Program-made: the position numbers and the translations under genes
NCBI GenBank assembly: GCA_976551045.1
Contig: CDPCPM010000344.1
Span: 14,136,001 to 14,200,000, forward strand
Length of the DNA: 64,000 bases
Direction of reading: 5' to 3'
Source: Glaucostegus cemiculus
Taxonomy: Eukaryota
Shown here: positions 8,750-50,349 of the stretch, one piece after another
Numbering within the stretch: the stretch's first letter is position 1
Layout of the letters: every line of letters starts with the position of its first letter
Notes under the pieces: model-generated
What the model was told of the DNA's origin: nothing
The model's input: the letters and a program-made list of their open reading frames with translations, nothing else
Databases searched by the model: none

Positions 8750-9450
8750 CCTGGGGTTAAAGGCCAAGGAGAAGAATTCATAGTAAGCTGGCAATAAAAC
8801 AAAAAACTTACGAGTTAAAACTGTTTCATTCAGATTAGTGGGAAATCAAAAAATGGTGTGCCACAGCAAATGGCATTGGAATCACCACTGTTAACCACTT
8901 CCATAAACAATTTAGACTTGGAAATCAGAAATACTCTAATAATTGCAATACATATCAATACTGTTTGCTATAAAGTAAACTTGTAGAACTGAAGTGTAAA
9001 TGGCAAATGAATTTCAAAATAGGTAATTAAGATTTGTGCAATATGGCATGAGAAATATGAAGGCTGCATACTTCTTGCAATCAAACCACTGCAAGAAACA
9101 GAAATTAAAAAGTACCACAGTTATATTAAACTTGCGTAGAACCTTGGATAGGTCTCATATGAAGTACTGTGCACAGTTCTGAATTATCAATGGCACTGCA
9201 GAAATGCAACAAAAATTTACATGGATAATACTGAACAAGGTGGAACTTTTCTCTGTAAAAACATTTCAGAAGTCTTGAAAAATATGAAGGGATTTAGGAG
9301 CAGATGTAAACTATATATCTCTGCTTGTGAGATATCTAAAATTAAGAAACATAACTAAACAGCTAGTAATAAATCCACGGAGTAATAAAAGTGAATAGAA
9401 GGGAAGCTATACAGCCATGGATGAGAGAGAAATGAAGGATATGCTGAAAA
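8750..9450 (+). mobile_element. Highly degenerate CR1 LINE 3' remnant
   Basis: Residual CR1 motifs (agtggg...ggtgtgccacag, tggcaaatgaatttcaa, gaagtactgtgcacagttctg). No ORF. Confidence 0.45.
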
Positions 9451-10322
9451 GGCTAGGCAAAGTCTCATAAAACAGGTGATTGTAAAATATGCAAATCACC
9501 AATTTGTACAATGTATGCAGCAATGACCAAGTTGAGGAAAAATAGACTTCATTGCTTTTGTACATGTATAAGAATTTAATATTGCTATCCTGCCACTAAC
9601 TTTATATTCAAATAAAGTCTGAAAGAAAATGGCTTCTAATATTTATAAACATAGGATGTGCAACAGCAGAAATCAGTCCACTGAAAAACTGAAATGCATA
9701 TTTTTCTAATTAGAAAGCATTTGAATAGACTAAGCTGATACAACTATCTTGATGCAATGACTAACCCACACAGAAGGTCACTGTGGCGAGAATACACATT
9801 CAAATGTGTAAGCACTGTTACCAAACTGTCACATGGGGTAAAAGATCATACTCAAACTTACAGTATTATCTTATCTCAAATTGCTACTGCCATCAACATC
9901 ATCAATTTAACGTGTTTTACACAAAATGTTATTTCCAGGTTTAACCTTTTGTAAAAATAACGATGCTCCTTAATGGAAATGGCATGTAAATTATACATCC
10001 TTACCACTGCACATTCATTGAAATCCTAGTAACAAGAGCAAGTTACTTTTGTATCATGGTGGCACAACAAACACTTTGTCACAGGTGGGTTTGTGCTAAA
10101 AATACATTCTTTTCTTTTAAATAACTTTTTGAGAACTCTCCATAATGAAACATGTGGTCCTATAAATAAAATTAACTAGGTGAGTTTTTAAAATATTGAA
10201 TTACCAACTTGTACACTTCACCTTTTCTGATGACTAGTAAAAACGACCAAATGATCCCCTTTATTCTGACGTCAAATGGGATACGTTGATGGAAACTTTT
10301 TGGTATGCTCCTCTCCACCTAC

Positions 10323-10793
10323 CTGTCACTGCTGGTACTACTGCTGCTGCTGACTGAATCACTGCTTGATGACCTACTCCGGGACCCACTGCCACTGGGA
10401 GATCGTCGTGACCGTCCTTGGCTAGGTCGTTGTGGGGACTGGTTTCCTGACCGTGAGGAATGTGGGGATCGACTTCTGCTGTGCTGATAATTCTTTTCTT
10501 GCCGTCTCCCTCTTACTTCCCGAGTAATATCTTCCCTGTAGAGATCTCGGTGTACTACACTTGAAATTGCAAACTGTTCCCTCCCTCTTTGTTCATAACG
10601 TGGATCATGAGCTTCAAATCGAGTAGGACTTCGACTTCTTGACCCATAATAAACTCCATGTTGTATAGTTCGATCCCGAGGATCTCTATAATAATCCTGT
10701 TCATAATGTCTGGGACGATCAAACCCTGCTGTTGTACGATCGTGGTGTCCATAGGCACTATGATCATAAGTACGCTCCCTGTTATCAGAAGCC
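10323..10793 (-). CDS. SPEN: SPEN coding exon 3 (471 nt): R/D/Y-rich and RS/poly-Ser low-complexity region
   Basis: Acceptor aaaacag|G and donor AG|gtaggt, phase 2/2. Encodes ASDNRERTYDHSAYGHHDR...SRSRSP...SSSSDSVSSSSSTSSD, matching vertebrate SPEN. The gene continues beyond the left edge of the window. Confidence 0.97.
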
Positions 10794-11710
10794 CTGTTTT
10801 GTTTGGAAAAGGGGATGGGAAGAGGAAGGAAAAGAATGACAATCAGTCGCTCATTACTCACACAGCAGGAAGATCCCCTAATTGCCCCCTCTAAACACTG
10901 GCAAAATAAGCATTTGACTTTTAAATAGCAAATATATGGAAACAATAAAGAAATTGGCAAAAACATTATGTTCAGTAGCTATTATTAAGAAACTGAATGC
11001 TTTCTTTCAATGCTTATCCTTCACAGTTAACTATCATTTTCTAATGCAGTTGATATTATACTAATTATTAAGCTTATATTTCTTAATTCTCATGTATTAA
11101 AGTTAGGAAAAGATTAATGCAGAACCTGATTTACCAAAGTCTAATTAATTTGCTGCATAATTTACCTCAGTAAAAATAACAATACTCAGAAATGTAGTTA
11201 TTTTAAATTCTGGAATTTCCATAATTCTACTCATATCTTCATAGTTATTTTATATTCAGATCATTTTTAATCACTTCCCATTCTAAATTTCTTCCATGCA
11301 AGATATTATAACAGTATTACTTTTCCACTGACACACTACAGATTCAGAAAACAGAAAACACTGAGTAGCAAAGCCACTAAGCTATGCATAGAGTCAAGTT
11401 GACTTAATCAGCGATGTATAGAACTGTGCTTACAATGTACTGTGGAATCATTTTACACTGACCTTTCAGCAATGAAAAGAAGCAAGCTGATTCCAAATTA
11501 CTGCCATCAGCTGACACACAAAAAAAATATAAATTCCTAATCCATGAAAGACAAAGACAGGCAAAGAAGCTAACAGAGGTGCAAGACAGTGAGATTCTAT
11601 TGACTAAGTGCTGATTGAATTTTTAGCAGTGCTAATGACTACTGGAGTTAGTGGAAAGAAAGGGTTGACTGGGTTAGGAGAGGGGCTAAGATACGCATGG
11701 CAGGGCATAC

Positions 11711-12982
11711 CAACCTTTTTAGACTGCAGTAAACACGACCTAAATCCCAATTAAATCTAGGGAGAGAAAAGTGTACAAACATTCCCAATTTGGTCCCCTC
11801 TTAAAGGGGTAATCCAACTTCGGATAGTGCTAGTGCCGCATTGATTTGGGGATTGTATCAAGAAAACTGAACGCCCAAGAAAGATAAACTTCCATTGCCA
11901 GTGTTACGTACATTCGCCTCAAACAGATAGCTCCCAAAGTTTAATAGTAACTCCCAAACCCCAAGACCTTTCTGAGATGCGGAGTACGTTCAGATGGATG
12001 TATGACGGTAAATAGATGTATCCCAATTCCAGTCGACATTAAGCAACTATACCCGTTACTCCCAGAGCACAGTGCTTTCTTCTAGCAGTAGGCATATAAT
12101 ATCCATTTTCTAGCAGTCAGTTGCCATGTCTTAAAATATTTTCACATTTGATCTGAAAGTTAAAATGTAATGTATCCACTAACAGATTTCCCTTGTTTGA
12201 TAGTCCACTGGTACAATAAGTAGAATCAAGAAGAGTATGAAACACAAACCAGGTAATCCAAACTGCCATACAACTATTTTAAGATGAATGTAATCCCACG
12301 TCGAAGAGATAATGCCCTCCATTCCATTATGCAGGAAAATGAAATTCCAAAGTGTTTGAAAGCTCCTACAATTTAATCGTTGGACCAGAAATATCCATAA
12401 GATCCAATTGGGGTGAATCAAAATAAACAGTACAGATATGTAGACCCTTGTATATGTTACGTTCTCAATTCTTCAGTTTTCCTTCAAATGAATTCATGTT
12501 GAAAATCATTAGCTGTAATATCCTTCAAGGAAAGTAGTAGATCAAAGAGTACTATATCTTCATTGAAATAATTTCATATCCAAAGAACGTGCATCAATAC
12601 CTTACACTTAAGCCAAAGCCAATATGATACTGCAGAAAGTCTTCAATGCACTTCAATATTGCCTCAAACAGTAGGTCTAGTAATTCCATAGTATTCCTTA
12701 GGTTGGTTGTACCAGGATGCAATATCATAGCCACTCAATCGTAGGGATACATCCAGAGGGAACGGCTTGCAATCCATGGAGAAAAGGGAAGCTTATTACG
12801 AGGGTTAACTCCATAGTAACTGATAAAAACCTTCCATCAAACTAACCAAACTTATCCCAGGAGTAGTCATCCAGCCAGCTGCAGAATAGATCCACTGCGA
12901 AGAGGCCAGAGCTGCTACTGGTTTCAATTCTCTTCCATATCCAACAACGACGCGAATGTATAGATTTCCTCATTAAATCCAT
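11711..12982 (-). other. SPEN: Candidate alternatively spliced/poison cassette region in SPEN intron 2
   Basis: Acceptors ttccccag|ATGG (12982) and ttttctctccctag|ATTT (11756). Tandem donors AAG|gttggt (exon end 11715) and TTG|gtatgc (exon end 11711). No recognisable repeats; GGA/GAA-rich on the sense strand; stops in all frames. Confidence 0.55.
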
Positions 12983-13058
12983 CTGGGGAACCTAAACATG
13001 AGTTGCTGCTTCTCACACTATTTATCAAAACCCTGCCTAGAGAAACCTTGGAACTTAC

Positions 13059-13379
13059 CCATCAAGTCTCCGTTCATAACGTCCTTCCCGTCCATGTAGT
13101 GATGGTGGTGGTCCATATGTTGGCCCCCCACCACCTCCCCTGAACCCTGAAACCTCTCTAGTACGAGTTCCTATAGGAACGGTATCATCTAATCCCCGAG
13201 CAGCACTTGGAATAGTGCCAGGCTCATTGTAATCCGTTCGAAGATCTCGGTCTCCCATTTTGTTGACAGAATTGTGCGCTTTCTGTGCACTTTTGATGTC
13301 CACAAAATCCACAAAGGCTGCCACTCCTCCTTCTGAGCCCCTTTTGGGAAGAATTTTGACACTTTCCACACGGCCATAT
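13059..13379 (-). CDS. SPEN: SPEN coding exon 2 (321 nt): rest of RRM1 plus Gly/Pro linker
   Basis: Acceptor ctttctttcag|A and donor GG|gtaagt. Encodes YGRVESVKILPKRGSEGGVAAFVDFVDIKSAQKAHNSVNKMGDRDLRTDYNEPG...GRYERRLDG (RNP1-like AAFVDF). Confidence 0.98.
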
Positions 13380-13526
13380 CTGAAAGAAAGAGAAAAAAAT
13401 AAATATGCAAAATACAAACTAGCCAGGACATGTTACAATCAACATTTTACATAATATTACAATATTCAAACAGTAATATTTTCAACTTTTGCTTTTAGTA
13501 ACTAGAAAGAAATATAAATTCAACAC

Positions 13527-13858
13527 TAGTGGCACAGCAATTAGTGCTGCCACCTTACAGGTCCAGAGACCTGTTAATTGATCCTGATTTTGGGTGTTGT
13601 TTGTATGGAGTTTGCATATGGTCCCTCAGTGTCAATCCTCCCTTGCCCCCCCACACACCCCAGCCTGCGCCCCCAGAAGTTCTCAGTTTCCTCCCACATG
13701 TTAAAGATGATGGTTGGTGGGTTAATTGGCTATCCAGGAGAATCAGAGAGGGGAGCTGATGGGGATGCCAAAGGAAAAAATGGGATTAATGCAGGGCTTG
13801 ACGGCTGGTGTGAATGCAGTGAGCTGCAGGGCACGTTCCTGTGCTGTATGACTCTACA
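13527..13858 (+). mobile_element. tRNA-derived SINE (HE1-like)
   Basis: tRNA-like head gtggcacagcaattagtgctgcc, body tgtatggagtttgcat...tttcctcccacatg, and CR1-type tail gttcctgtgctgtatgactcta. Confidence 0.75.
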
Positions 13859-15569
13859 ACTAACTTCATTTTCATGTTTTTAATATAAACTATACTGTTC
13901 AGCTGCCATCAACTCTCTCTTTCAGAGAATATAGCCAACACCATGAAGAAAGTATATGTGGTATGACAGGACCAGGAGTGGAGGTCTGTATCTGATCACC
14001 AGATTCCTGATTGTGGTACTGATGAATAGGTAATATTGTTAATTTGAGGACATGCATATTTTCGGATTAAAACCATTATAAGATCCTAATTTACACTGTG
14101 TAAAGTAAACCTTGCAAGTTAAATTAACTGTTTGGATTCTTTTATACCTGATGCAGAAATTTGAACAGAGCACACTAACAGCAGTCAAGTATCATTTCCA
14201 ACATTCACTGATGCACATCACTGAATTCATTGGTAGGTCTGCATTCTTTCCCTGTTCTTTTTCCCACTTTCAGAATCTGAGTCCCCAGTTCCTCCAACCT
14301 CTTACTGGTCTTACTCCATTAGTAATCTTATAGTCCCAAATAATTTTCACATTTCCATTCCTTTGTGAATTATCCATTAATGCTTTAGGGTATGTATTCA
14401 ACATCATGGTTATTAACTGCACTAATTAAATTCCAAAGGGAATAATAGATCTTGCTATACTCTTTATTTAACCTAAATGGAGAAACATCAATGTGCTTGA
14501 ATCTGCTGAGAAACATGTATTCAAATATTCCAACAAAATGTCATTCGCAAAATAAGATTTTCAATTTCCAGGTTAAAATTATACCATACCAAAAACATTC
14601 ATTAATGTCAAGTCAACTAAAATGCAACATACAATGCTCAACTGTAAATGCATTCTTGCAACAAACTAAGTTCTGTTCTGACATGTCAATGGAATAAACA
14701 TGAATACTACAAAAGAAAAGCAGAGTTCACGGCTTTCATTCCATTCACACAATCCCCATTTTTTTCTTATTTAAATAGCTTCCTCATGTTCTATAGTATA
14801 TTGTTGATACTAAGCTTGTACCTTAGGAAATGGATTATGGTCAAAATTTTACTTTGTTAAAAGATTATGCAAAAATGAAGGTAACAATTGTGTTATCAAT
14901 GAATGCGCTAACAGTAAAAACAAAAAGTAATAAAACAGAATATACAACCTACTTTTTTAAAGCACAATGTAAAAGCTAATTTCCATCAGTTCTCTAATTA
15001 TCTCTACCCTACAACATCCCAATCTTGGCCTTGAATTCATGTTTTGTAGGAAAGAATCTGCAGGACTATGGGGAGTGTGGGGAAGGAGACTACTCTTGCT
15101 CAGAGCCAGTAATGACATGAGGGGCCAAATGACCTTCTCCTATCCTGAAACAATTGTGCTATAAATACTTTGTCAGTTATTCTTTGATTGCACTCTGGTG
15201 CTTCATCAAAATAATCATTTTTCTTGCTTACGAGAGATAATACAGTTGAGCTTAGTCTTATGTTCAATAGTCATACAAACTAAAAATATAGTTCTCTTAC
15301 AGCCTAGTGGTATAAAATTGCTAGATGTGCTACAGATTGTGGGATAACTACAAAGTTTATTTTGGGATGCCTGTACTGGCTCCCTTGGCAACTCCAAATC
15401 ACTAAACTAAAAGCAGTTGCATGTACTTCCAGGAGGTGTCATTATACAGTGATCAGAGAAAAAGATGTTGCTCTTCAAACCCTGATGACAGGTTCATCGT
15501 GACACCCCAAATGCTTTTCACCTACCCTGGTCAAGACCTGCAATATTCAGTAAACAAAAAGATACCAGC

Positions 15570-16260
15570 AGTCCAATGGGGGGCGGGGTTAATACTGTGG
15601 ATAAACGTGGGTGCTGTTTTATATTAGGGATAATTTTGTATTTTATTGAATTATTTTGTTTCATTAAATCTTATACTATTACAAGACATAATTATGGAAT
15701 ATTTAAAGCTATGTTGCATGGTTACAACTCGTGACTGTCCTGCCAAATAAGGATAACGTGGAATATTCACAAATTTTAATCAATCTGATCAATGTTTTTC
15801 CATCAGCAATTATGAAAACCGCAGGCAGTAAAATGTCATCTTTTCACAAACATTTCGGTGGCTGCTGCTATCAGACTTTTTTTCCCCCATTTTAACCCAC
15901 ATTCAAATGCGTGCTGTTTACAGGCTTGTGTGTACTTTGAGAAACCAAGGCCGTTTAAACAAACAAATGGACTTTGAGCAAATCCCGAGAGCAGTTATTT
16001 ATGTGCTTTCCCTCAGTGACGAGCTAAACTGGCCGCATGACACACCTTGTGGCTGCTTTCCAATCTCTCCCGATTGCTGCAATCTCGCAGCCGACCAGCG
16101 GTGCAATGCTGTAAAATGGCGGGACATAGCACAGGCATCAAACGGACACATATAATGGCGGGAGACGAAGGGGTAAAAAAAAGCTCAAAATTGGGTCGTT
16201 GTAGTAAATCGATATCGCTAACGAAAAATGATCGGTTATTTAGATACTGTTGGATGTAAT
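15570..16260. promoter_or_regulatory. Candidate intronic regulatory element (CCAAT + GC box, YY1 motifs, CpG retention)
   Basis: ccaatgggggcgggg at about 15573-15588, aaaatggcgg at 16113-16122, taatggcgg at about 16153-16161. CpGs are visibly dense compared with flanking intron. Confidence 0.45.
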
Positions 16261-16889
16261 TCTCCCTAAAGCAATCTTTTTCATTTCAAGGACATCATTC
16301 TTTGTAGGGTTTTCATTGGGCGCAGTCATCAAATAATCTACCTCTCAGAAACTGGGCGGATCTTTCAAGAATATCACATGATCTGCTTGTATTGCAGTAA
16401 GATTTCAATGCGGTACGTTCTAATTTGTATTTGCCTCCTTACGTAAATATAAAAAGAAATGATTCCCAATTTCTGTAAGTAGAGAGGTGTTTCGATTTAA
16501 TACTTCAGTATCTAGTACAGAGGTCTCTATGAAAGCGATTGTATTTGTTTTTAAATAATTCGTGATGCGATTAGAGTGACGTTTATCAGCGGAATAAATT
16601 GCCTTGTTGCTTCTGGGCAAGTCTCTTGGGAGAAGTGAATGCCACACCGAGATTTTTACACAATGCATGTTATGCGGACTTTGAGAAACTGCTCTGCTAT
16701 TGCAGAAATCCTGCATTTCAGACTTCTCGATTTCTACGAACGTTACTTCTAAAACTAAGCGCAATAATGAGTCTATTTTCGCAATAGCAACATTTGAAAG
16801 GAAACAATGTCCCACTCGAGATGTGATAAAATTGTTTTTATGCTAACTCAAACTTAATTTAAACTATCCGCACACCCCATCCAAACTGA

Positions 16890-17125
16890 ATACTCAGGTG
16901 GCGGGAACATTCAGCAGTAGAGCTAACGTTGCAGATAGAAAATTCTTCGTCAGAACTGGGGGAAAAGAAAACAAGGGCGAACTTGTTTTCTTTCCCAGTT
17001 TTGACGAAGGGTCTTCAAACCAAAACGTTAACATGTTTCGCTTTCACAGATGTTGCCGGATCTAAAGAGTGTTTTCTGCATTTTATGATTTTACTCAGAT
17101 TTCTAGCATCTGTAGTTTTGTTTTA
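16890..17125. repeat. Palindromic Penelope-associated short repeat with central hairpin
   Basis: Arms cttcgtcagaactgggggaaaagaaaacaag (16945-16975) and cttgttttctttcccagttttgacgaag (16982-17009). The cacagatg(c/t)tgcc motif is shared with copies at about 6190, 18180, 19870 (minus) and 40940. Confidence 0.55.
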
Positions 17126-20100
17126 AATTTTCACTTCCCGGGAGAAGGATGATATCTAAAGGAAACCCGTAAAGGCCTCTCTACTGATAGCAACTTGATC
17201 CTTTAATATGGACATGGGTGAAGTTATGTGCCAAGGACTACACTACTTCGCAACTATTCACTTAGAAAAGAAATGCAGAATCGAAATTTAAGATTGACGA
17301 GAAATACCTCCCTAGATTTTGCTGGATTATTCATAATTTAATTTTTGAGACAGGTCCTCAGTATGGAATCCAGTAGACAGCCAGGAATCTGCCGACCTGA
17401 CGCGGGATCCACAATCCCATAATTTCACTAGGGTCAGTAGGATTGCGGGGAAGGAAAGAAATATCTGCCCGTTTATATTTAATGGTAGTTCGCCTAATAT
17501 CTAACATTTAGATTTAATTCTACTTCATTTTACTCGTTTTGAGTCGTAATACCGAACATTGAGAAACAATTTAAAACTGACGACATTGACAATCGGCTTT
17601 GGCATTTTGTTAACGGTAACTGTTCTGATCCATCCACTGTCCACCGCTCGACCTTGGTTCTACCTGATCAAACGAGATCAGCCTTTATTCAAATAAGATA
17701 AATTCAGACGAGTGGCGATAGCGAGTAGCAGGGCCGTAGCAGTAACATCAAAGCCATTTCATGGCAATAGACCATTTAACACCCTGCGAAGAAGCACTCC
17801 CTAATAGCACTGCTAGTTTAAAAATTGTTGGAGGGTTTACACCATGTTGGCTCCAGCTACCCTGTCGATAATGTTCCAGAGTGGTCATAAATATGAAATG
17901 TAGCGCTTAATTTCCAAAGCAAAGCTCCAATGTATTAAAATAAACATCCAGAAATACATTTAGTGCTGGGAAAGATAATGGAACCGCTATTCAAAGATCC
18001 AACAAAAAAATCATGTAGAAAATATAATAAAGAATAGTCAACACATATCCCAAAAATGAATGACCAAGCCTGTTTAACGTGAAACAAAATAGAAGATGTC
18101 AAAAATGTTCATCAGGCCAGGAGGCATCTATGGAGAGCGAAAATAAAGACAACCTTTCAGATCAATGAATCTATCTTTCTCCATTGATGCTGTCTCACAT
18201 GCCGAGTGTTCACAGTGCTTTCTGTTTGAGATTTCCAGCATATGCAGTAGCTGTGATATTCATGGGCTTTTGAAATGTCTTTGATAAGACACGACTAAGG
18301 TCAAAGCATGTAGAATCAGACTAACAACAAAACTGAAAGTAAATGTTAAAGGAAGTTAGTCGCGTTGTCAGGACATGGGAACTGGTGTCCCAAAAAAACC
18401 AAATAATCTTGCGCATTCTCTACAATGCTATATCAATCTTCAAAAATGGGATGGTTGAATCACACTTACTGCAATCATCTTGCCATGCAAAAAGGAGACA
18501 TGCAAAAAGGTATCCCAAGTTTAATGCCACCATGATGTTGCTTAAAATCTACCATCTCAGTATTGGCAGGCAAACCAGTTTTTTTTATTAGTTATCCATG
18601 ATAACTTAATTCATGTATATTTATTGTCAATTTTTCTCTGGCATTACAACAGTGGCAACATTTAGTCACTACAGATGTCATCACTGGCTGTTACACCTCA
18701 ACATGCAATCTTAACAAACACCCTTCCTGCCACTGCTTATTCCAGTCACATGAGAGGAAGATACAAATTAGTCCGATGCAATTTTCCAGTAACAAATCTA
18801 TGTTGCCTGTCCTTTACTTCAGTCAATGCATCCCATGGATAATAATGGCATTGAAAGAAACAACAACAATTTGCATTTATTCAGCATCCTTATTATGATA
18901 AAAATAATCAACAGTGTTAATCAGCAGCAATATCAAGGTCTGACAACTAGCTACAGAAGGAGAAATATGGAAAAATGACCACAGCTTTGACAAAATGAGA
19001 TAAAAACACAAGGGCACTGAAAAATAAGACCCCTCAGGTCTACACTACCATTCAATAGGATTGTCGCTGATGTGATCTTGGTGTCAGCTCCACTTTCCTG
19101 TCTGGTTTCTTTAACTGCTGATTCCACTAACTTCTAAAATCTCTCTCAATACTGAATATACAAAGTGATTTGGCCTCCACAGCATAATCTAAAGATTCAC
19201 AACCATCTCATTATGTCCCATGTTCTGTATTCCACCTACTAGAGGAAATATCCTTTCAAATCATGACAACAGGTTGCATAAACTTGGATCATATTTCATT
19301 AAGTTCAGTAACATGCAGGGTGACCCAACTAAGTTGTCTAAAAATAATTTAAAAGGGCAAATATAGATAAATCTGAGCTACTGTACCTCTCTAATGTTTT
19401 ACTTCTGTGCTTTAGTGTTTTAAAATCATTCCCAGACAACATAGTATCTATAAGCACCATAAAATCTTGAAGATTAAGACATGTCTAGTCAGCAGAAAAC
19501 TTATTTGCATCTACTAAAACTGCCCAATATCAAACATCTGCTAGCAATATACTGCAGATTTTTCCCAGATTACAGGAAATTCTTATTTAATCCATACCAT
19601 GATTAACCATATAGATCCAATGGTCCAACTACATTGCTGTTGTTTAACACAACCATCCCTACTCTAACCAGTATGAAACAAGTAAATCCACAATTACGAA
19701 GTACTGCTATTTTTCTAAATACACACTATATCCACACTTTGTATGTTTACTTTCAATACTTTAAAAGTGGTTTCACTTTTTTTTACACATAAAATGTCAG
19801 AAGTTTAGCAAGCAGAGAGAGGGTGCATTTACTCAACAAACAAATCCAACATTGCAACTATATTGGAGACACAAGAGACTGCAAATGCTAGAATCTGGAG
19901 CAAAAAGCAAACTGCTGAAGAAACTCAGCGGGTCAAGTACCAAAATGGACAGTTGTCATTTCAGGTCAAGACCCTTCATCTGGACTGAGAGAAGAGAGGA
20001 AATAGCCAGTATAAAGAGGTGAGGGAAAGGGGTGGGGCAAGAGTGACACTACACTACAAGAATTACAACAACATTGTTCAAAATACTATCAAACTAGTAC

Positions 20101-20509
20101 TGTATTCAAAATTTCAAGTGTGCACATGCTCTATACAGTATTGTTAAATAACTCTGGTCCAGTTACAAACACCAGGTCTGATTTGTCCAGGTAGAATTCT
20201 TAGCTACAATTGTTTTTCCCAGCTCAAAACTGATAATTATCTAACTTGATAATGCGGCTTAATGCTATGGAGGAAACAAATTAAAGGCCTGAAATCCTTG
20301 ATGTTTAAGTGCACAGCAAAAATTATAGTAAACTGCTTAATGTAGATGATATATTTGTGGTGTATTCAAGTAAAATATTCCCTAACAGAACTTCAAAAAA
20401 ATCAAGTTGTAAACAATAGACATAGTTTGCAGAGCTTGTTGTTTGCCGAGATCATTAACAGAATGTTATCACGTAAAGAACTTGCAGTTAGATGGTGCTA
20501 TTTATCTCC

Positions 20510-20766
20510 AGGATGCCCTAAAGGTACTACCATCAAGGAGGAGGTACAGAAGCCTAAAGACCTACACTCAACGATTCAGAAACAGCTTCTTCCCCTCTAC
20601 CATCAGATTTTTGAACAGTCCATGACTCATGAACACTACCTCGTTATTCTTTTTTTTGCACTATTTCTTTTTGTAATTTTTTAGTAATTTTATGTCTTTG
20701 CACTGTACTGCTGCTGCGCAACAACAAATTCCATGTCATATAAGTCAGTGATAATAAATCTGATTC
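20510..20766 (+). mobile_element. Rex1/Babar-type LINE 3' end
   Basis: Translates LPSRRRYRSLKTYTQRFRNSFFPSTIRFLN, a typical Rex1/Babar C-terminus. Followed by a 3' UTR ending gataataaatctgattc. Confidence 0.8.
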
Positions 20767-23700
20767 AGGTCTGGCTTTGACTTATCATAACATTCACATA
20801 CTGCTATGGTGTCAGCTCCTTCATTGTGGTGTTGGCCCAAGTTTTTGCTTCAGGTTCCACACTATGGCTTGAATCTACTGTAGGCTATTTGTACCAAGTC
20901 AAAGATGTCAGAGTCAATATTAATATAAATTTTTAAAAGGTCATATTTTTAGAGAGTTGTACACAACTAATACACTTGCATTCAGGAGGAAGATCATTTC
21001 ACCTTGTATGTGAAACCAAAAGCTCTCACTCAGACACAGGAGCAGCTGGCACCTTTGTTGAATACAGTGCTAACGAAACTCAACTGGTGGTTTGGAGCCA
21101 GCGATTTTGGACAAAAAGTAATGACTCTTTATTCATCTTTTAACTGCTAGCCATGCAATATCAAAGCCAAACTTATCATTCCACAATCCTGTGCATAATT
21201 TACTTCACTGTATCACAAAGAAATGTGCACGTGGATTAGAAAGCAAGAACAGCACGTGCCAAATTAATTTTAAAGATTGTTTAAAAGTAGTTAATGACTA
21301 TCATCATCAATGGAAAATATCCAGTTTGAATCTGACTCCAACATCAGTCAGAGCACTGTAACATAAATGAAATTAAAAAGAAAATTCTCATTATAATGAA
21401 ACTTCCACAAATTGTGCACAACTTATTTATTGAATTTCAGAAAGGCTGGCATTTTTTTTTGATAGACAATAGGTGCAGGCGTCTTGGAAGTGGGAGAGGA
21501 GCAGCAACGTCAACTGCATTCCTGACGTAATTTACATTAAACTTCTTCTGAAGTGATCCTGGGAAGAAGCCCTGTCCAGCATGGAATACAAATTTCGGTT
21601 TATGCATGTCAAATTTCACGGATTTCTGGATGAATCTACCTTCTTCCATATCAGTAGGAACTATCCTTAATAACAAGAATAGACAGGAAGAACAAGTTTA
21701 AGTTGTTGGCCCTTTCATTTGATCAAAAGGGAAATGATTCAATCGATAGCTGTTTGGCAAAATAATCCTTTATTAAAAATGAACTATAGAGTTTCGCTTA
21801 TTACAAGGAAGTGTTTTGTTTTAAAATCACGGATGCAAACAAACAAAAATTAAACCTGATCGTGTATTACAACCCATTAGTAACATTTCTCTGAGAATAT
21901 TAAACCTCCTAAATTTGAATAATTGTTCCGATTAGACTGCTACTACAATTAAGTCTCATTTAACTACGCTCATGAAAGTAGGTTTACTTTGGCAAAATAA
22001 AGTAGACCACAAGGAGACCACGCCCTCTTCATAGCGCACACCAACTGTTTATACACACACAAAAAATGACAACACGGCGTGGACAAGAAAATTTAAACGA
22101 TTTGAAACATTAATGCCAAATCTTCCTTTTGCTGGAGAAAGCATCCAGACTATCGTTGCTGACGTCGCCCACCTTGCTAACACTTTTAAAAAACTATTTC
22201 CTAAATATACAAGGGTGCACGACGGAAGAAAAACTCATCGATCAACACTATTTAACATAGAAAGATGCATTTTGTGCTAATGGTTTCCTAACGATTCTCC
22301 ATGCTGTTACAATATAGCGCAAGCTGCAAATACAATAAAAAAACTAAAGACACCGAATATTAAATATTGTAACACCATGAATTAGCAAGAGCTTTGTTTC
22401 ACAATCTACAAATTTATTTGTATGTTTCGCCTGAAGTATAACACTGTTCCAGATCGTTTCTATCTGAAGCCTTTTGCACCCTCCCCCTTATGCGTTTCTC
22501 GCGTTCTCCGGTGGGGGAGGGGTGGGAACTGGCTTATTTGCATTTCAAACTGTTATACCAGAAATACAGCGCTCTTCTATAATTAAATATAAATATAGAC
22601 ATCAGATTCTGCAAACCGCAACTTATCTCAATTCTTATAACTGTTGTGATAGTACATAATACGTACTAAAATGTTTTAATTTTACAGATTTTTTGCTCAG
22701 CCAATCTGCTGGGCGAAAGCACCAAAACTGCTAAATGAATTTCTGTCAAACAAATTATTTTAATACTTGGTAGATTTTTTTTAAGGACTATTTTGTAGCA
22801 CTTCTAGATGTGCTCCCGTTCTCATCCCCATGAGACAATGTCAAGATTGTAATCACACACGTTTATATAAAAGTACATTGATGTAATGCAAATTATGGAA
22901 TTGACGTTACAACACGAGTAAAACAATCTATAAAAGTTTGACATAAAGGGGGTCAAAAACGCAGGATAACGAATGCTTGTAAATGGGAAATAAAACACGG
23001 AAGTTCATCTTCATTGTGACCATGCGTAGTAATTAAATGAATGATCTATTACTTCATATAAGATTTTTGTCAAACTCTAGATCCTGCTGGATCTAAACTA
23101 GTAACTAGATCTAACTTAAGACTGGCAACAGTAATTTTTTGACGAATCACCAAGCAAATGCAACTAGGCAGCTAATATATAGAAGCCTCTGACTAAAATC
23201 TTTTATCTAAACGTGGAATGCTGCCAAAATATGCTGGATCCCCTTGTTACCATTTATTTTTTTTTATCGCAGAAAACGACTTTCAAATACTGGTTCCTAC
23301 TCAATACCTACTCCTGACAAGAAGCGAAAAGTCAGATGTAGAGGTATGAGAACAATGCATTTTGCATCTTTGTCCAAACCCTTCAGCCTTTTTCATTTTT
23401 GACCACATAAATCGTCAATAAGTGTAATGATTTTCAATACAGGCACAGCATTTTGAACACGAGATTAAAAACTCTTACAGATCAAGTCAACTATGGTTAG
23501 CTTTACTAAGATCCAACATGGATTTTTACATAACCATCAACCAACAAACAGACAAGGTTCGTTATCAGGTCTATTTAAATATCCCAATGAAATCAGAGTT
23601 AAATTCCTAATGCGTCTTGGAATTCTTAAAAAGATATTTCCACAAAAAACTGATGAGCTTTTTCGCATTATTTTAAAATAATCTCCCCACTTGACTTAGC

Positions 23701-24950
23701 TTCTGTACTTCGATAGTTGTGATGCATCTTCCTACAGTACTGGCATGCCTTTCTATTTAAAAATATATAATGGGGACCAAAAATGCAAATTTAAAACATC
23801 TTAAAGCATAATGTTTTCCAAAACAATTTATTAAACATTTTAAAATCACAGAATCATACACAATATGGTAATTGGATTTTGCTACACATCCTCCAACAAA
23901 GTACATGTTTCAAATGCCAAACGTGAGGTTTGATGCCGAGAATGGGATCCGCCATTTTACTCACGCTAGCACCACACGCTACGCTCAGTATCCTTATTTT
24001 ATCATTTCCTTTTACATCAATAGCACCACTGATTAAAACATAATAATTAAAGTTAGGAACAAACAGTATGCACACTTGTAAGTAGCTTTCACAACGTAAC
24101 CATGTTTTTGTACAATAAATTAGGTACAATTTCCAAATTCCAACCCTTCACTACACGAGAAACAAATTCGAACCTTTAACTGCAACTTGGATCGCTGCTT
24201 CCTTTCTAGAAAATATAAATAACCTGCAAAATTCAACAACTATACTTGAAAGATCAGAAATTTCTCAGAGATACTGTAATACAATCGGAGCATTGTACCT
24301 AAAACTTCACATCAAATAGTTTTTTTTCAATTAAACAATTTCAATGACATTTTGCACACATTTCCTGCTAACAGAAGTCTATCATGAGCCTGTAAGTTTT
24401 TTCGTCTGCTATGCAGGGTCAAACAGCTTCTTCTGATCGCAGATAAGCGCCAGTTAGGACCTTTGCTATCACAAATGTGTTGTGTTGTGTTGGGCTCCCC
24501 TCCCCCAGTCCTGTTTCCCACAGACAGTCCTGTCCTCCATTACAGCTCCCATGTGTCTAAAACACAGTCAGATCTTCACATCCTTCCCTCTCGTGGGGCT
24601 GGAGCTTCCCAAACTACTAAAAATTTCCAAGATTAACTTAACTTTATTGCAAACTTTACGCCCTAAAACATAATATACAACATTTTTAAAAAACATATAC
24701 TAGATTCAGTACCGATTTAGCCAAGTCACGGGCTAGAATTTAAAAAAAGGCAAAACGTTTTGTGTCCCATTTCACTTTTTAAGTGCACGATCTTTCTTCT
24801 CGGTGAAGCGATGAAAAGGAGCCCGGTGACATTAGTGAGCACGTATAAGCAGATCGCCCCAGGATTGTAGCAATACCACACAACAATAGGAATACTGTTG
24901 GGCCGCCTGTGACCCCCTTTTACTGGAGTGAAGGATGCGAACTTAACCAG

Positions 24951-24955
<5 letters not shown>

Positions 24956-24982
<27 letters not shown>
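24956..24982. repeat. (GT)n microsatellite in SPEN intron 1
   Basis: About 13 perfect GT units. Confidence 0.95.
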
Positions 24983-25117
24983 CGATCTCACTCACACAGC
25001 TGCAGCAAGACGCCGGCACTTTCTCCGGTTTCAGTTTACCCCAAGCGGCCTCGAGGCCGGGCCCACACAATAACACACCGAGCAGTGTTTACTTGGCATC
25101 TAGCCGTGCCAACTTAC

Positions 25118-25200
25118 CGCTTAAAATGCTCGATAATCTTGTCTTCGCGGACATTTTCCGGCAAATTCCCCACCCAGAGGTGCCTGGTTTCTCGTACCAT
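25118..25200 (-). CDS. SPEN: SPEN coding exon 1 (83 nt): start of RRM1
   Basis: ATG at 25200. Encodes MVRETRHLWVGNLPENVREDKIIEHFKR (RNP2 LWVGNL). Donor CG|gtaagt is in phase with exon 2. Not in the ORF track because it is short. Confidence 0.98.
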
Positions 25201-28200
25201 CCTTAGCGAGTCATAGGACTCCTTTTCCGTGTGTGAGAGTCCGGGATCGGGTTGGCTTCTGTCAGCGCCAGGCCGGGTTAATCCTTGAGGTAAAATCCCA
25301 CCATTAGGCTAACGCACACACTCACTCCCGCTCCGCGCCGCCCGACCTGACGCGGTTTTTTTTTCCTCGAGACGCTAACAGTCCGTCCCGAGACCCGACA
25401 CCGAACAGTACCACGCATGCGCGGAATCCGCCACAGCGGGCGCGCAAGCGCCACGAAACCCCGGGTCGATTCAGCTCCACACGCACGCGTGGAGAAACCC
25501 TCGCCCTTCTCCCTCCCCCCCACACTTCCCAGCCGAAAGAATGGACATCAACTGCGCCTGCGCCGTACCATCTCAACACCGCTCTGCTCTCCCCCCTCCC
25601 CAGCAAAGACCGTGGAATCTACGCATGCGCGGAAAATGCAGCTCCCCGGCATACTACGCAGGAGGGTCCACAGCCGCTGCAGGAGCCGGGAGTGGGAGTA
25701 CGCGTGCGCAGACAGCGGCTGGGAGTGTTTTCTGCGCAAATGTGCCGAGTTGGTGTTTAGCTTACTCCAGTGACTGGGAGGAAAGTTCTGGAAAGGCTGC
25801 TGTCGGCGCAGGAGCACGATGAATAGAGAGGAATCTGAGAGCGCAGTTCCAGGGATATCCACTATTTCATTTAAAGAATAGATCTGTTTAACCCGTGTAT
25901 AAGTGCCTCCTTCGACTAATACTAAATTTTGGATGGTCTGAACGATATGGGAAGATTTTAGATGGCTTGAACGCCGAAATGACCGATATGAGGAAATACA
26001 ACCTTCAAAAAAAGCTTGTTACCAGTAGCTTTATCAGGAAACTGCTGTGTGTTCGTGGGGTTTATCTTACAGGAATATCGTCCATTCTCAGTCCTTTGTC
26101 CCTGTCTTTGTTCCCCTCCCCCTTGTCTTTTTCCACTCGGGCGCCATTTTAAGGCGATGGAAAGTTCTGGAGAGTCCGCCATTTTGTGGCAGCCAGTTAC
26201 TCTGCCCTAACAGGGAGTGCAGCGCATAGACACTGCTGGAATATCAGAGATGTAGACTACTTTGTGGCTTAAAATAGTGGAATAACAAGCACTTATGCCC
26301 TATGCGATCTTAAAGTGTGAGCTTTCTTGGAAGATGTTATTTCGTTTAGTCATAGCACTAAATAAAACTGGCTTTGCGTCCAACCTATACAGATCAACTG
26401 TTTACAAGATCGCTAAAATTAGGATATGTTAAATTTATATCGGGTTGGAGAGAAGGAAAGAATTCTCTGGGGAAAGGACAACAGTTTGGGTAGTGATACC
26501 ACAATACAGTAAGTGTTTCAGAAAGGAGACCAATATAAATTTTTTTATTAAATTTTGTATTTAAGCATTACGTCACCATTCAAACATACATTTACAAACA
26601 TAAGTACTGACATAGCCTGATGGGTCACATGCTTCTCACGCTCTTGCTGTAAATTTGAGACTCAAAAATCACGAAGCTTTTCAGATTTTTTTGGGGAAGG
26701 GGATTAAGGTTGGTTTTCTGGCGAGCAACTGTTACGGGGTTACTAAATGCTGATTGAAATTGCGAACTGTAATTTGAATCCAATTTATGTGACAAATTAA
26801 AGTAGCGAAAATGATGCAATAACCACATTTTGGCGATTTCAAAAGCCTGTTCTTTCAGCAGGCCCATTTATATAGAAAAAAAAGGTTTTAATTATATAAT
26901 GTGTTTTGATATGCTGGAAGTTGGCGGCATATCGCAAAATTGAGGCTGAAATGGATATTGGTTGTAAAAGGTTTAATGTTTTACCTATGGATTTCCTAAT
27001 GAAGGATTAAGCATGCAGTTCTTTTATGTTGGCCCTAGGTTTGAAAATCTATGGTGCAAGATACCAAGGCGGAAAGGGCAGGCTAAAAGTAAATGACTCA
27101 TAAGGTTGGCTTTTCAAAGGCTGCAATTATGTACTGAGTTATGCAATCGGCACACAGGCTATATTCTCAAGATTGCCTTTTGTCTCATGACATACGTACA
27201 TTCAGTGGTAATATAAAAACTGAACTGATAAGGAGGGTAATATCCTAATTATTGCAGAACTTTGAATTTAGTGTGTTCTGTTTATTTGTAGCTAATCAGC
27301 AATAACTGAGAAACTGTTACAAATGGAGGATCTTAATCTAACTAATTTTCTGCATTGTATCCAGAGTACCTGACATTGGTCTTTATTATAGTCGCAAGTA
27401 TTTTTAGAAAACACCCTTTTGAGCCCACCTGCAAAGACCACAGCGAAGGCTGTATTATTTTTGGAATGTGTTTTTCTCTGAGTTATCTATGGTAGACCTG
27501 GTTGGACGTGGAAATCGAAAACAATTCTTGTGTGCAAAGGCATATATTTTGATAGCCAAATAAATACAGGTTTGCATTAAAGCTATTTAAATATTTTTAA
27601 CCAGATTTTCAAGTATTAAGAGAATCGGAGGATTTGACATTCGTTCAGGAAAGTGGTGTAGATATATAAGATCAGCCATGATCTTACTGAATTCTGGAGT
27701 AGACAGGAGGACCCAAATGGCTTACCCGCTTCTGTTTCCTATTTGTGAAGGCTGGCAATAATTTGTAAAGTGAGCACTTCCATTAAAGTACATCACAAAA
27801 CAAAATTGTGAAAGCGTTTGGTGGAGCTTCCTGTGTATGGCTTGCACTTTGCTTTATCATTGATAGTGATAACCTAAATTACCTCTGTAGTCTTCACATG
27901 CTTATAGTTTTGCATATTTTGGTTAACCTTTGTTCTCTTTGAACTGTGTATTTTATCCGTTTTGTTTGTAAATTATCCTTTAAAAAAAACAAATAGTAGC
28001 TTGTGCATATTGCAACAAAGGCTGGTCTATATAGAGGCCTTTGGATTGCATTCTGCTGATTAAGCCAGTCGTAAACAGAACTGCAGTTTAGCTTCATGTT
28101 CCATTTATGTGTGTACTTAGTGATGTTTTGTAACGAATCCAGTAATTGCTTCCCAGCAACTATTTTTGTGGTTTCCCAGCAACTACCTTTTTGTGTTGTG

Positions 28201-48630: not shown

Positions 48631-49643
48631 TTCATTTTTCTTAGTTACCTCCTTAAAAAAACTCAATCCACTTGCACTATTTGGCACTAAATATGTCCTG
48701 TTATTTTTGTGGATTTGACATGTATATTCAAAGGCATGCATAAAATAGATTTGTCATCCAACAAATAGATATTTTGATCATAAAGTCTTGCATTATTAGC
48801 ATTTTATTAATAATATGCAGCCAGTAAAGCTCACTTGCTTTGCGTGATCCAAATTTCTGATTGGTCTGCAAAGCAGTTTCGATGTACAACAGTGCCACAG
48901 ACTGATAGAAAGTGGACTTGCAATTTTGCACCAGACTCATGATGAAAATGGGCAATATTTTAAGTTACTTTGAATGGCAAGGATAAGAAATTAAACATGG
49001 ATATTACAATTATTAAATGGGGAAATATTTGCATATTTACTCATCTAAGCTTCTTCAATAACAAAGATTTTTTTGCTCAGACATGGCAGGTAAGGAGATT
49101 TCTTCATACTTCTCAAAGTCATACAAGTTATTTTTACACAGTGAGTGATCAACACCTGGATTGGACTGGCATTAAGTTTATAGGAGGTTGGATGGGCTTT
49201 CAGAAATAAATGGATGCAATCATAGGCTAACAATAGAGTGCTTCTGGAGGAATGAACTAATACAAGTTAAATGGACTCTTCAGAGCCTGATCCAGTCCTC
49301 ATTCATTTCCATTCACTTTCCAGCAGAAATCACTGATCTTTTCCCATTCTAGCCCAGGGGCATTGAAGCTAACTTTGCCATCCAAAATGCTATTGTAGTT
49401 GAGATATGCTATTTCTGCTCACTGCAGCCACTGTGATCAGTACGATAGCATGTAATGCAATTACTCACTGAGCCACCTTATGAATTAGAGAGTGTATTAG
49501 AGAACTTAAATGATTTTGTAGTACCCTGGGTAAAGCATGGTAAGTCTGGATCTAATTTAGAACAATGAATCAGCATAAAAGGAAACCTTTTGCTAAAGCA
49601 TATATTTTCAGTATTGCTTTGCATAGAAATATAGGAATTATAC

Positions 49644-49822
49644 CTCTGGAAGTCTTCAAGGCAGTGAATCTCATTAGCTTGGTTCACTCCAAAACGCTCC
49701 GTTCCAATAAGCCGGTTGCAGACAACGCATGTGAAGCACTCAGGGTGGAAAGCTTTGCCCATAGCTCTAATAATCTGATTCATTATGGTTTTATTGCATT
49801 TTCCACACTTCTCCAAGGTGTT
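49644..49822 (-). CDS. FBLIM1: FBLIM1 coding exon 5 (179 nt): LIM2
   Basis: Acceptor ttgcag|AAC and donor AG|gtataa. Encodes NTLEKCGKCNKTIMNQIIRAMGKAFHPECFTCVVCNRLIGTERFGVNQANEIHCLEDFQ. Confidence 0.96.
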
Positions 49823-50349
49823 CTGCAATTTAAGGGAGAATGGAAATCATAGTTAACATCCTCACTGCAGCTGACAGAAAAAGAATCTATTATACTGTGC
49901 ACATTATATTATGTTAGCCAGGTTTGTTGGGTCTCCATTAAATTGCTTTTTCCCTTTTCAATAAAAACCACACAGAGTGAGGTGTGTGCAGAAATAATCA
50001 TCTTATCTTGGGAAGACATCTACATGATCTCTATTACATCTGGGCCTCTTCCACATGACCTGTATTACATTTAATATGATCCTTTCAAGTTGATGAGCCT
50101 ACTTGCAGAGAAAATTAAAGTTACTGTTCCCACAGGTTTGATGGTCTATCAGGATGTCAAGGAGTCCAATGAAAACTATGCTGTGCCACACTCAGTGCAT
50201 CTTCTAGGGGGACATCTAATGCAAGAAAATAGCATCAGAAAAGTATAATATTGTCCTAATAGACTATCCTGCCCACAATTTTCTTTTATTCATAACTCAC
50301 ATGTGGAGGATAGTGTCCAAAGGATTGCTTTAACAATGATTTAGTAGAT

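Follow-up and report, generated by a model that had tools for sequence, protein, structure and literature searches.

What is the purpose of the 1.3-kb block (11711–12982) that lies in the second intron of SPEN in Glaucostegus cemiculus, within the 64,000-nucleotide stretch of DNA analysed here (the window)? The original prediction, made from the letters alone, had described it as a long poison cassette exon that would truncate SPEN just after RRM1 and thereby limit its dose. The gene assignment on which that proposal was built was borne out: on the minus strand, where the SPEN exons and splice sites described below are located, the coding part of exon 1 (25118–25200, ATG at 25200, donor at 25117), exon 2 (13059–13379, the remainder of RRM1 and a linker) and the first part of exon 3 (10400–10793) join in frame, and the window carries the 5′ part of the gene. 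A domain search found an RRM_1 match in the product, exon 2 shares as much as 95% identity with SPEN/MINT records from named vertebrates, and exon 3 matches the residues that follow exon 2 in SPEN records. In a tree of the first 275 residues of 22 rows, 21 of which were chosen from the retrieved records with no named cartilaginous fish among them, the window row fell outside the ray-finned fish clade (97/98) and was parted from the tetrapods by a branch with 88/90. The block DNA is present in nine related organisms.

Three further observations were made outside intron 2. A LIM-domain exon (49481–49846, minus strand) presumably belongs to FBLIM1, the upstream neighbour of SPEN in mammals. Two stretches of SPEN intron 1 (16000–18000 and 22000–25000) have kept their CpGs (observed/expected 0.6–0.96 in most bins) at a GC content of only 34–40% and are candidate unmethylated regulatory regions, and intron 1 also contains an interspersed repeat fragment (about 13670–13870) for which the genome has at least 37 further matches.

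The block has an unusual composition, which agrees in part with its earlier description as GGA-, GAA- and CTAC-rich on the sense strand. When compared with 17 windows of equal length taken from introns 1 and 3, it was enriched in GGA (38 versus 17.1 ± 5.1, 0/17 windows as high), GGAT (18 versus 4.6 ± 1.9, 0/17), TAC (33 versus 16.2 ± 4.5, 0/17) and CTAC (8 versus 2.6 ± 2.1, 1/17), whereas the claim did not hold for GAA (32 versus 26.8 ± 5.0, 4/17 as high). Nor did the block stand apart from the other introns in retaining CpGs (23 versus 13.6 ± 12.8, 5/17 as high). GGAT was found 18 times on the sense strand and 5 times on the antisense strand, and TGGAT occurred 13 times versus 3.4 ± 1.9, a count reached by none of 300 dinucleotide shuffles. 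The m6A consensus DRACH was depleted (16 versus 27.1 ± 3.7); only one of the 300 shuffles was as low and all 17 intron windows held as many copies or more, which fits poorly with a plain m6A model, although a motif count by itself is no evidence on m6A marks either way. The block is also poor in A/T runs. It is single copy in its own genome (one match, compared with 38 for a control piece of intron 1), in line with its reported lack of transposon debris, but so is the remainder of intron 2, and the property is not peculiar to the block.

Searches for RNA structure were negative: an Rfam search of 9000–27000 returned one chance-level match outside the block, the region 11530–12000 was no more folded than its shuffles (z = +1.64), and in a scan of intron 2 none of 29 sliding windows fell below a z of −2 (lowest −1.87). 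A block that is no more folded than its shuffles and has a sense-strand excess of TGGAT would suit a role as an accessible docking site for some RNA-binding protein. An inverted repeat (11991–12002 with 12974–12985) that would mask the acceptor at 12982 was considered and rejected, because a substitution at 11996 in one of the sequencing runs described below (X3) falls within it.

The splice signals named in the original prediction are all present in the sequence. These are the AG before 12982 (12983–12984), which would leave an intron of 76 nt after exon 2, and the tandem donors GT 11714–11713 and GT 11710–11709 (together 11709–11714). The AG is weak (11/16 pyrimidines), and the acceptor is equalled or beaten by 13 others among the 67 YAG sites of the intron. 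An acceptor that had been overlooked (AG 11758–11757, 13/16 pyrimidines) is stronger and is joint-best in the intron; with the donor at 11714 it delimits a candidate 42-nt in-frame mini-exon (11715–11756), and with the donor at 11710 a frameshifting exon of 46 nt. Both stop readings were as predicted, and any form that contains the block would stop by codon 136–138. The stop, after residue 135 or 137, would lie over 1.2 kb upstream of the junction 11715/10793. The immediate stop on read-through does not carry the special meaning given to it, however: the canonical exon 2 donor (13053–13058) contains a TAA (13057–13055), and the stop is trivial since it is the donor's own GTAA read in phase. 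Use of the donor at 11714 would leave an intron of 921 nt (10794–11714) to be excised. In the pyrimidine-rich intronic flank past this donor (11329–11713), a donor-like site at 11462 (7/9 consensus letters) and a number of AG sites might belong to a second exon, cryptic or decoy.

Is the donor at 11714 used? Four runs were aligned to 10745–13050: X3 (organism B, taken as RNA by guess), X20 (organism I), X21 (raw RNA, organism A) and X22; among the listed holders of the block DNA, no run is on record as RNA. A 489-nt sense contig of X3 spans 12187–11714 and continues at its loose end with the start of exon 3. The passage from 11715 to exon 3 demonstrates use of the donor at 11714, preceded by an uninterrupted stretch of at least 473 nt, in one contig of one run from another species, and the predicted junction 11715→10793 was thus seen in a relative. 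The same contig reads through the 11756 acceptor and gave no sign of use of the 11710 donor, and a separate X3 contig covers 11329–11594, downstream of the donor. Run X21 yielded 14 reads inside and downstream of the block, none of them across a joint; all seven read pairs had one orientation (p = 0.016), which would be sense in a stranded library of the common kind. X22 gave no reads. The region 12200–13050 was uncovered in all four runs except for a 34-nt chance piece, but the filter produces such holes, which prove nothing. No record in these runs connects exon 2 with the block. Word shares of 0.26–0.51, above roughly the exon-only expectation, were obtained for 11 presumed-RNA runs, X3 being the only one of these that was aligned and counted.

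Differences between the window and these relatives revealed where the intron is constrained. In the intron-spanning contigs of X20, 60/491 positions differed at 10745–11235, 10/197 at 11329–11525 and 4/199 at 11534–11732, the last of these, beside the donor, being well below the first (Fisher p = 4e-6). In X3, at most 1/282 positions differed at 11714–11995, compared with 16/192 at 11996–12187 and 14/266 at 11329–11594, although the boundary 11995/11996 was chosen after seeing the data. Taken together, these counts show that constraint peaks around the donor and extends into the intron, reaching 380 nt past it, and that conservation above the intron background, as predicted for the block, applies to 11534–11995; part of the block is no better conserved than the flank.

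The nearest known arrangement is that of mouse Spen, where an alternative 5′ splice site marked by m6A was reported in intron 2, with a minor form that drops upon loss of METTL3 (Wei et al. 2021, PMC8327914). The LeafCutter cluster described there, which we assigned to intron 2 from the text of the paper and the peak positions, consists of two introns with one acceptor (that of exon 3) and donors 1,213 nt apart; the PSI of the distal donor fell from 0.337 to 0.167 on METTL3 loss (p = 0.002, adjusted 0.156), and the m6A peaks 5053a–f form an unbroken series from exon 2 onwards that ends 24 nt before the distal donor (PMC8327914). In the guitarfish window the gene and the intron are the same, and here too a distal donor 1.2–1.3 kb past exon 2 is spliced to exon 3 and yields a non-coding extension, the donor at 11714 lying 1,344 nt past exon 2 (1,213 nt in mouse) and being joined to exon 3 in one contig. 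The two differ in the intron that remains (921 nt here, about 3,540 nt in the mouse report), in the paucity of DRACH here, and in lineage, which is outside tetrapods and ray-finned fishes. Judged by position, length and an echo in teleost peptides (see below), the donor at 11714 is likely orthologous to the mouse distal donor. The element is already in print for mouse, and what is new is that it occurs in a lineage other than tetrapods and ray-finned fishes; our literature search found the mouse report and nothing on a SPEN intron 2 element in fishes, and PMC11429800 offered nothing relevant.

On this evidence we consider it likely that the block, whose alternative donor a relative's contig shows spliced to exon 3, lengthens SPEN exon 2 by 1,344 nt (11715–13058). 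With the extension included, the protein would end after 135 residues and the message would probably be exposed to decay. It is most likely such an extension, made by an alternative 5′ splice site, rather than a cassette exon. The full extent draws on the contig and on mouse: 12187–11715 is continuous and spliced in the relative's contig, and 13058–12188 would follow from the mouse arrangement. If the guitarfish gene behaves like its mouse counterpart, the normal exon 2 donor would be skipped, the long form would start at exon 2, and it would make up a sizeable share of nascent transcripts, promoted by METTL3/m6A. Read-through of the exon 2 donor would place the stop at codon 136 and give a product of 135 residues. 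By the established rules of NMD, a message is degraded when its stop precedes a splice junction by 1.34 kb, so that the long form would be expected to undergo NMD, or else nuclear degradation. In the weakest step of the scheme, SPEN or its family member RBM15 might bind the TGGAT-rich, open extension and favour the distal donor, which would close a negative feedback loop.

Fifteen of the 63 retrieved protein records with a spliced exon 1 start end exactly where exon 2 does (14 bear teleost names, one comes from a 2.5-kb contig), and many teleost annotations contain separate SPEN models of 124–135 residues (P0013, P0018, P0035, P0037, P0043, P0059, P0163, P0178, P0180, P0181, P0184–P0186, P0188 and P0191), which may reflect extended-exon RNA or split gene models; the 135-residue records came from a short-length search that favoured them. 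Most short matches are ORF calls that end at the donor's own stop and are uninformative on splicing. In the gene models of horse, turbot and salmon, exon 2 is followed by a short foreign tail. When placed on the window, the horse and turbot tails scored within the controls at the protein and the DNA level alike, and the salmon tail exceeded its control by one point at the protein level, not at the DNA level, the two tests placing it at different positions; a by-eye match of the horse tail near 12680 was dropped.

These records bear on the geometry first proposed, a 1,268-nt poison cassette exon (12982–11715) entered after the 76-nt intron, with a stop two residues in, which we now regard as improbable. 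Its AG and its stop do exist, the motif enrichment spans 12982–11715, the spliced X3 contig is compatible with it, and the three models with foreign tails would mean that internal acceptors are used in some of them. Yet those tails did not beat the controls in both tests, the predicted two-residue ending was found in none of the 63 spliced-start records (P0001–P0121 being among the records checked), and the pyrimidine tract is weak and the intron very short. As reported, moreover, the mouse cluster consists of two introns only, both leading to exon 3, with no junction of this kind, and the mouse m6A peaks cross the exon 2 donor (PMC8327914). What survives of the proposal is the idea of a conserved unproductive form that keeps SPEN dose in check: a long upstream piece is spliced at the donor at 11714, the reading stops by codon 136–138, and the mouse equivalent is regulated, m6A being its published trigger. 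A dose-limiting function thus remains plausible without the cassette.

Equally improbable in our estimate, the constraint could serve a short cassette on the same donor, either the 42-nt mini-exon, with 14 residues inserted behind RRM1, or a variant of it that is shorter or shifts the frame. This would suit its joint-best acceptor, its open frame and the peak of constraint around it, and in 2 of 28 longer SPEN records, those of the teleosts Lucifuga and Megalops, exons 2 and 3 are separated by an insert of 8 residues that could end at this donor. The Lucifuga insert matches the eight codons before donor 11714, a score reached by 2 of 1491 GT sites, the site itself included. The Megalops insert is weaker there (28 of 1491 GT sites reach its level) and, unanchored, scores best at 12057–12040, away from the donor, so that only the Lucifuga match was counted as good. 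The inserts point to the same donor in teleosts, as far as can be judged from peptides; against the mini-exon, insert length varies between lineages and the two teleost models may be products of gene finders. The sole spliced contig reads through the 11756 acceptor, none of the retrieved SPEN records has a 14-residue insert, and a search with the 46-residue ORF that crosses the donor and holds the mini-exon gave no match. The mini-exon is also absent from the mouse cluster as reported (PMC8327914).

Still less probable is a detained intron, in which the block would slow the removal of intron 2 or supply intronic poly(A) sites and the distal donor would mostly be a decoy. RNA-like records are found downstream of the donor too (the X3 contig at 11329–11594 and X21 reads), ATTAAA occurs at 12377, 11945 and 11271, and the 135-residue models are many; however, the donor is truly joined to exon 3, the X3 contig passes 11945 uncut, and in mouse the distal donor takes a third of the reported junction reads (PMC8327914). 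That the block is a conserved DNA-level element such as an enhancer, with incidental splice use, is very unlikely given strand-biased motifs, constraint centred on the donor and the regulated splicing reported in mouse, even though constraint extends 380 nt beyond the donor into the intron.

The extended exon can be set beside other systems in which RNA-binding proteins restrain their own genes. Feedback splicing within the m6A machinery has been described for Ythdc1 intron 11 and Wtap intron 6 (PMC8327914); these, like SPEN, are m6A-linked genes limited by an alternative splice form, and Ythdc1 is also of the alternative-donor type, but they are other genes with a reported effect at the protein level, whereas the SPEN form is known here from sequence. 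Spen binds its own mRNA, the level of which rises when Spen is lost (Carter et al. 2020, PMC7282817), and binding of SPEN to its own mRNA was also seen in the SPIDR preprint (PMC10274648). Both would agree with a negative feedback by which SPEN lowers the output of its own RNA; the repression considered in these accounts acts in cis or on transcription, and, as presented, they give no binding place and make no tie to the block. Like the ultraconserved poison exons of SR genes (TRA2B, SRSF3), the extension is conserved non-coding sequence in the gene of an RNA-binding protein, and it likewise places a premature stop far upstream of a later junction; unlike those cassette exons, it is most likely an exon extension, is longer and is only partly near-invariant.

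SPEN is the silencer recruited by Xist, and a 2024 CLAP paper, on which nothing here rests, reportedly mapped it on its own intron 2. A bolder reading, which we hold to be doubtful, is that the TGGAT-rich, DRACH-poor open extension is the ancestral RNA target of SPEN, a self-silencing module as old as jawed vertebrates through which SPEN or RBM15 would choose at one donor among full protein, a dead-end message and a 14-residue mini-exon insert, long before Xist borrowed SPEN.

SPEN is dosage-sensitive, and its haploinsufficiency causes a neurodevelopmental syndrome. What the window adds to the mouse case is evolutionary depth, the contrast between TGGAT and DRACH, and a candidate mini-exon. 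The constrained 460 nt around the donor offer a target for probing or releasing the brake with a splice-switching oligonucleotide or a small deletion. In mouse this brake diverts about a third of nascent transcripts, and its survival outside tetrapods and ray-finned fishes probably reflects old selection; with the same layout in mouse and the donor used in a relative of the guitarfish, this restraint on SPEN output probably dates back to the origin of jawed vertebrates.
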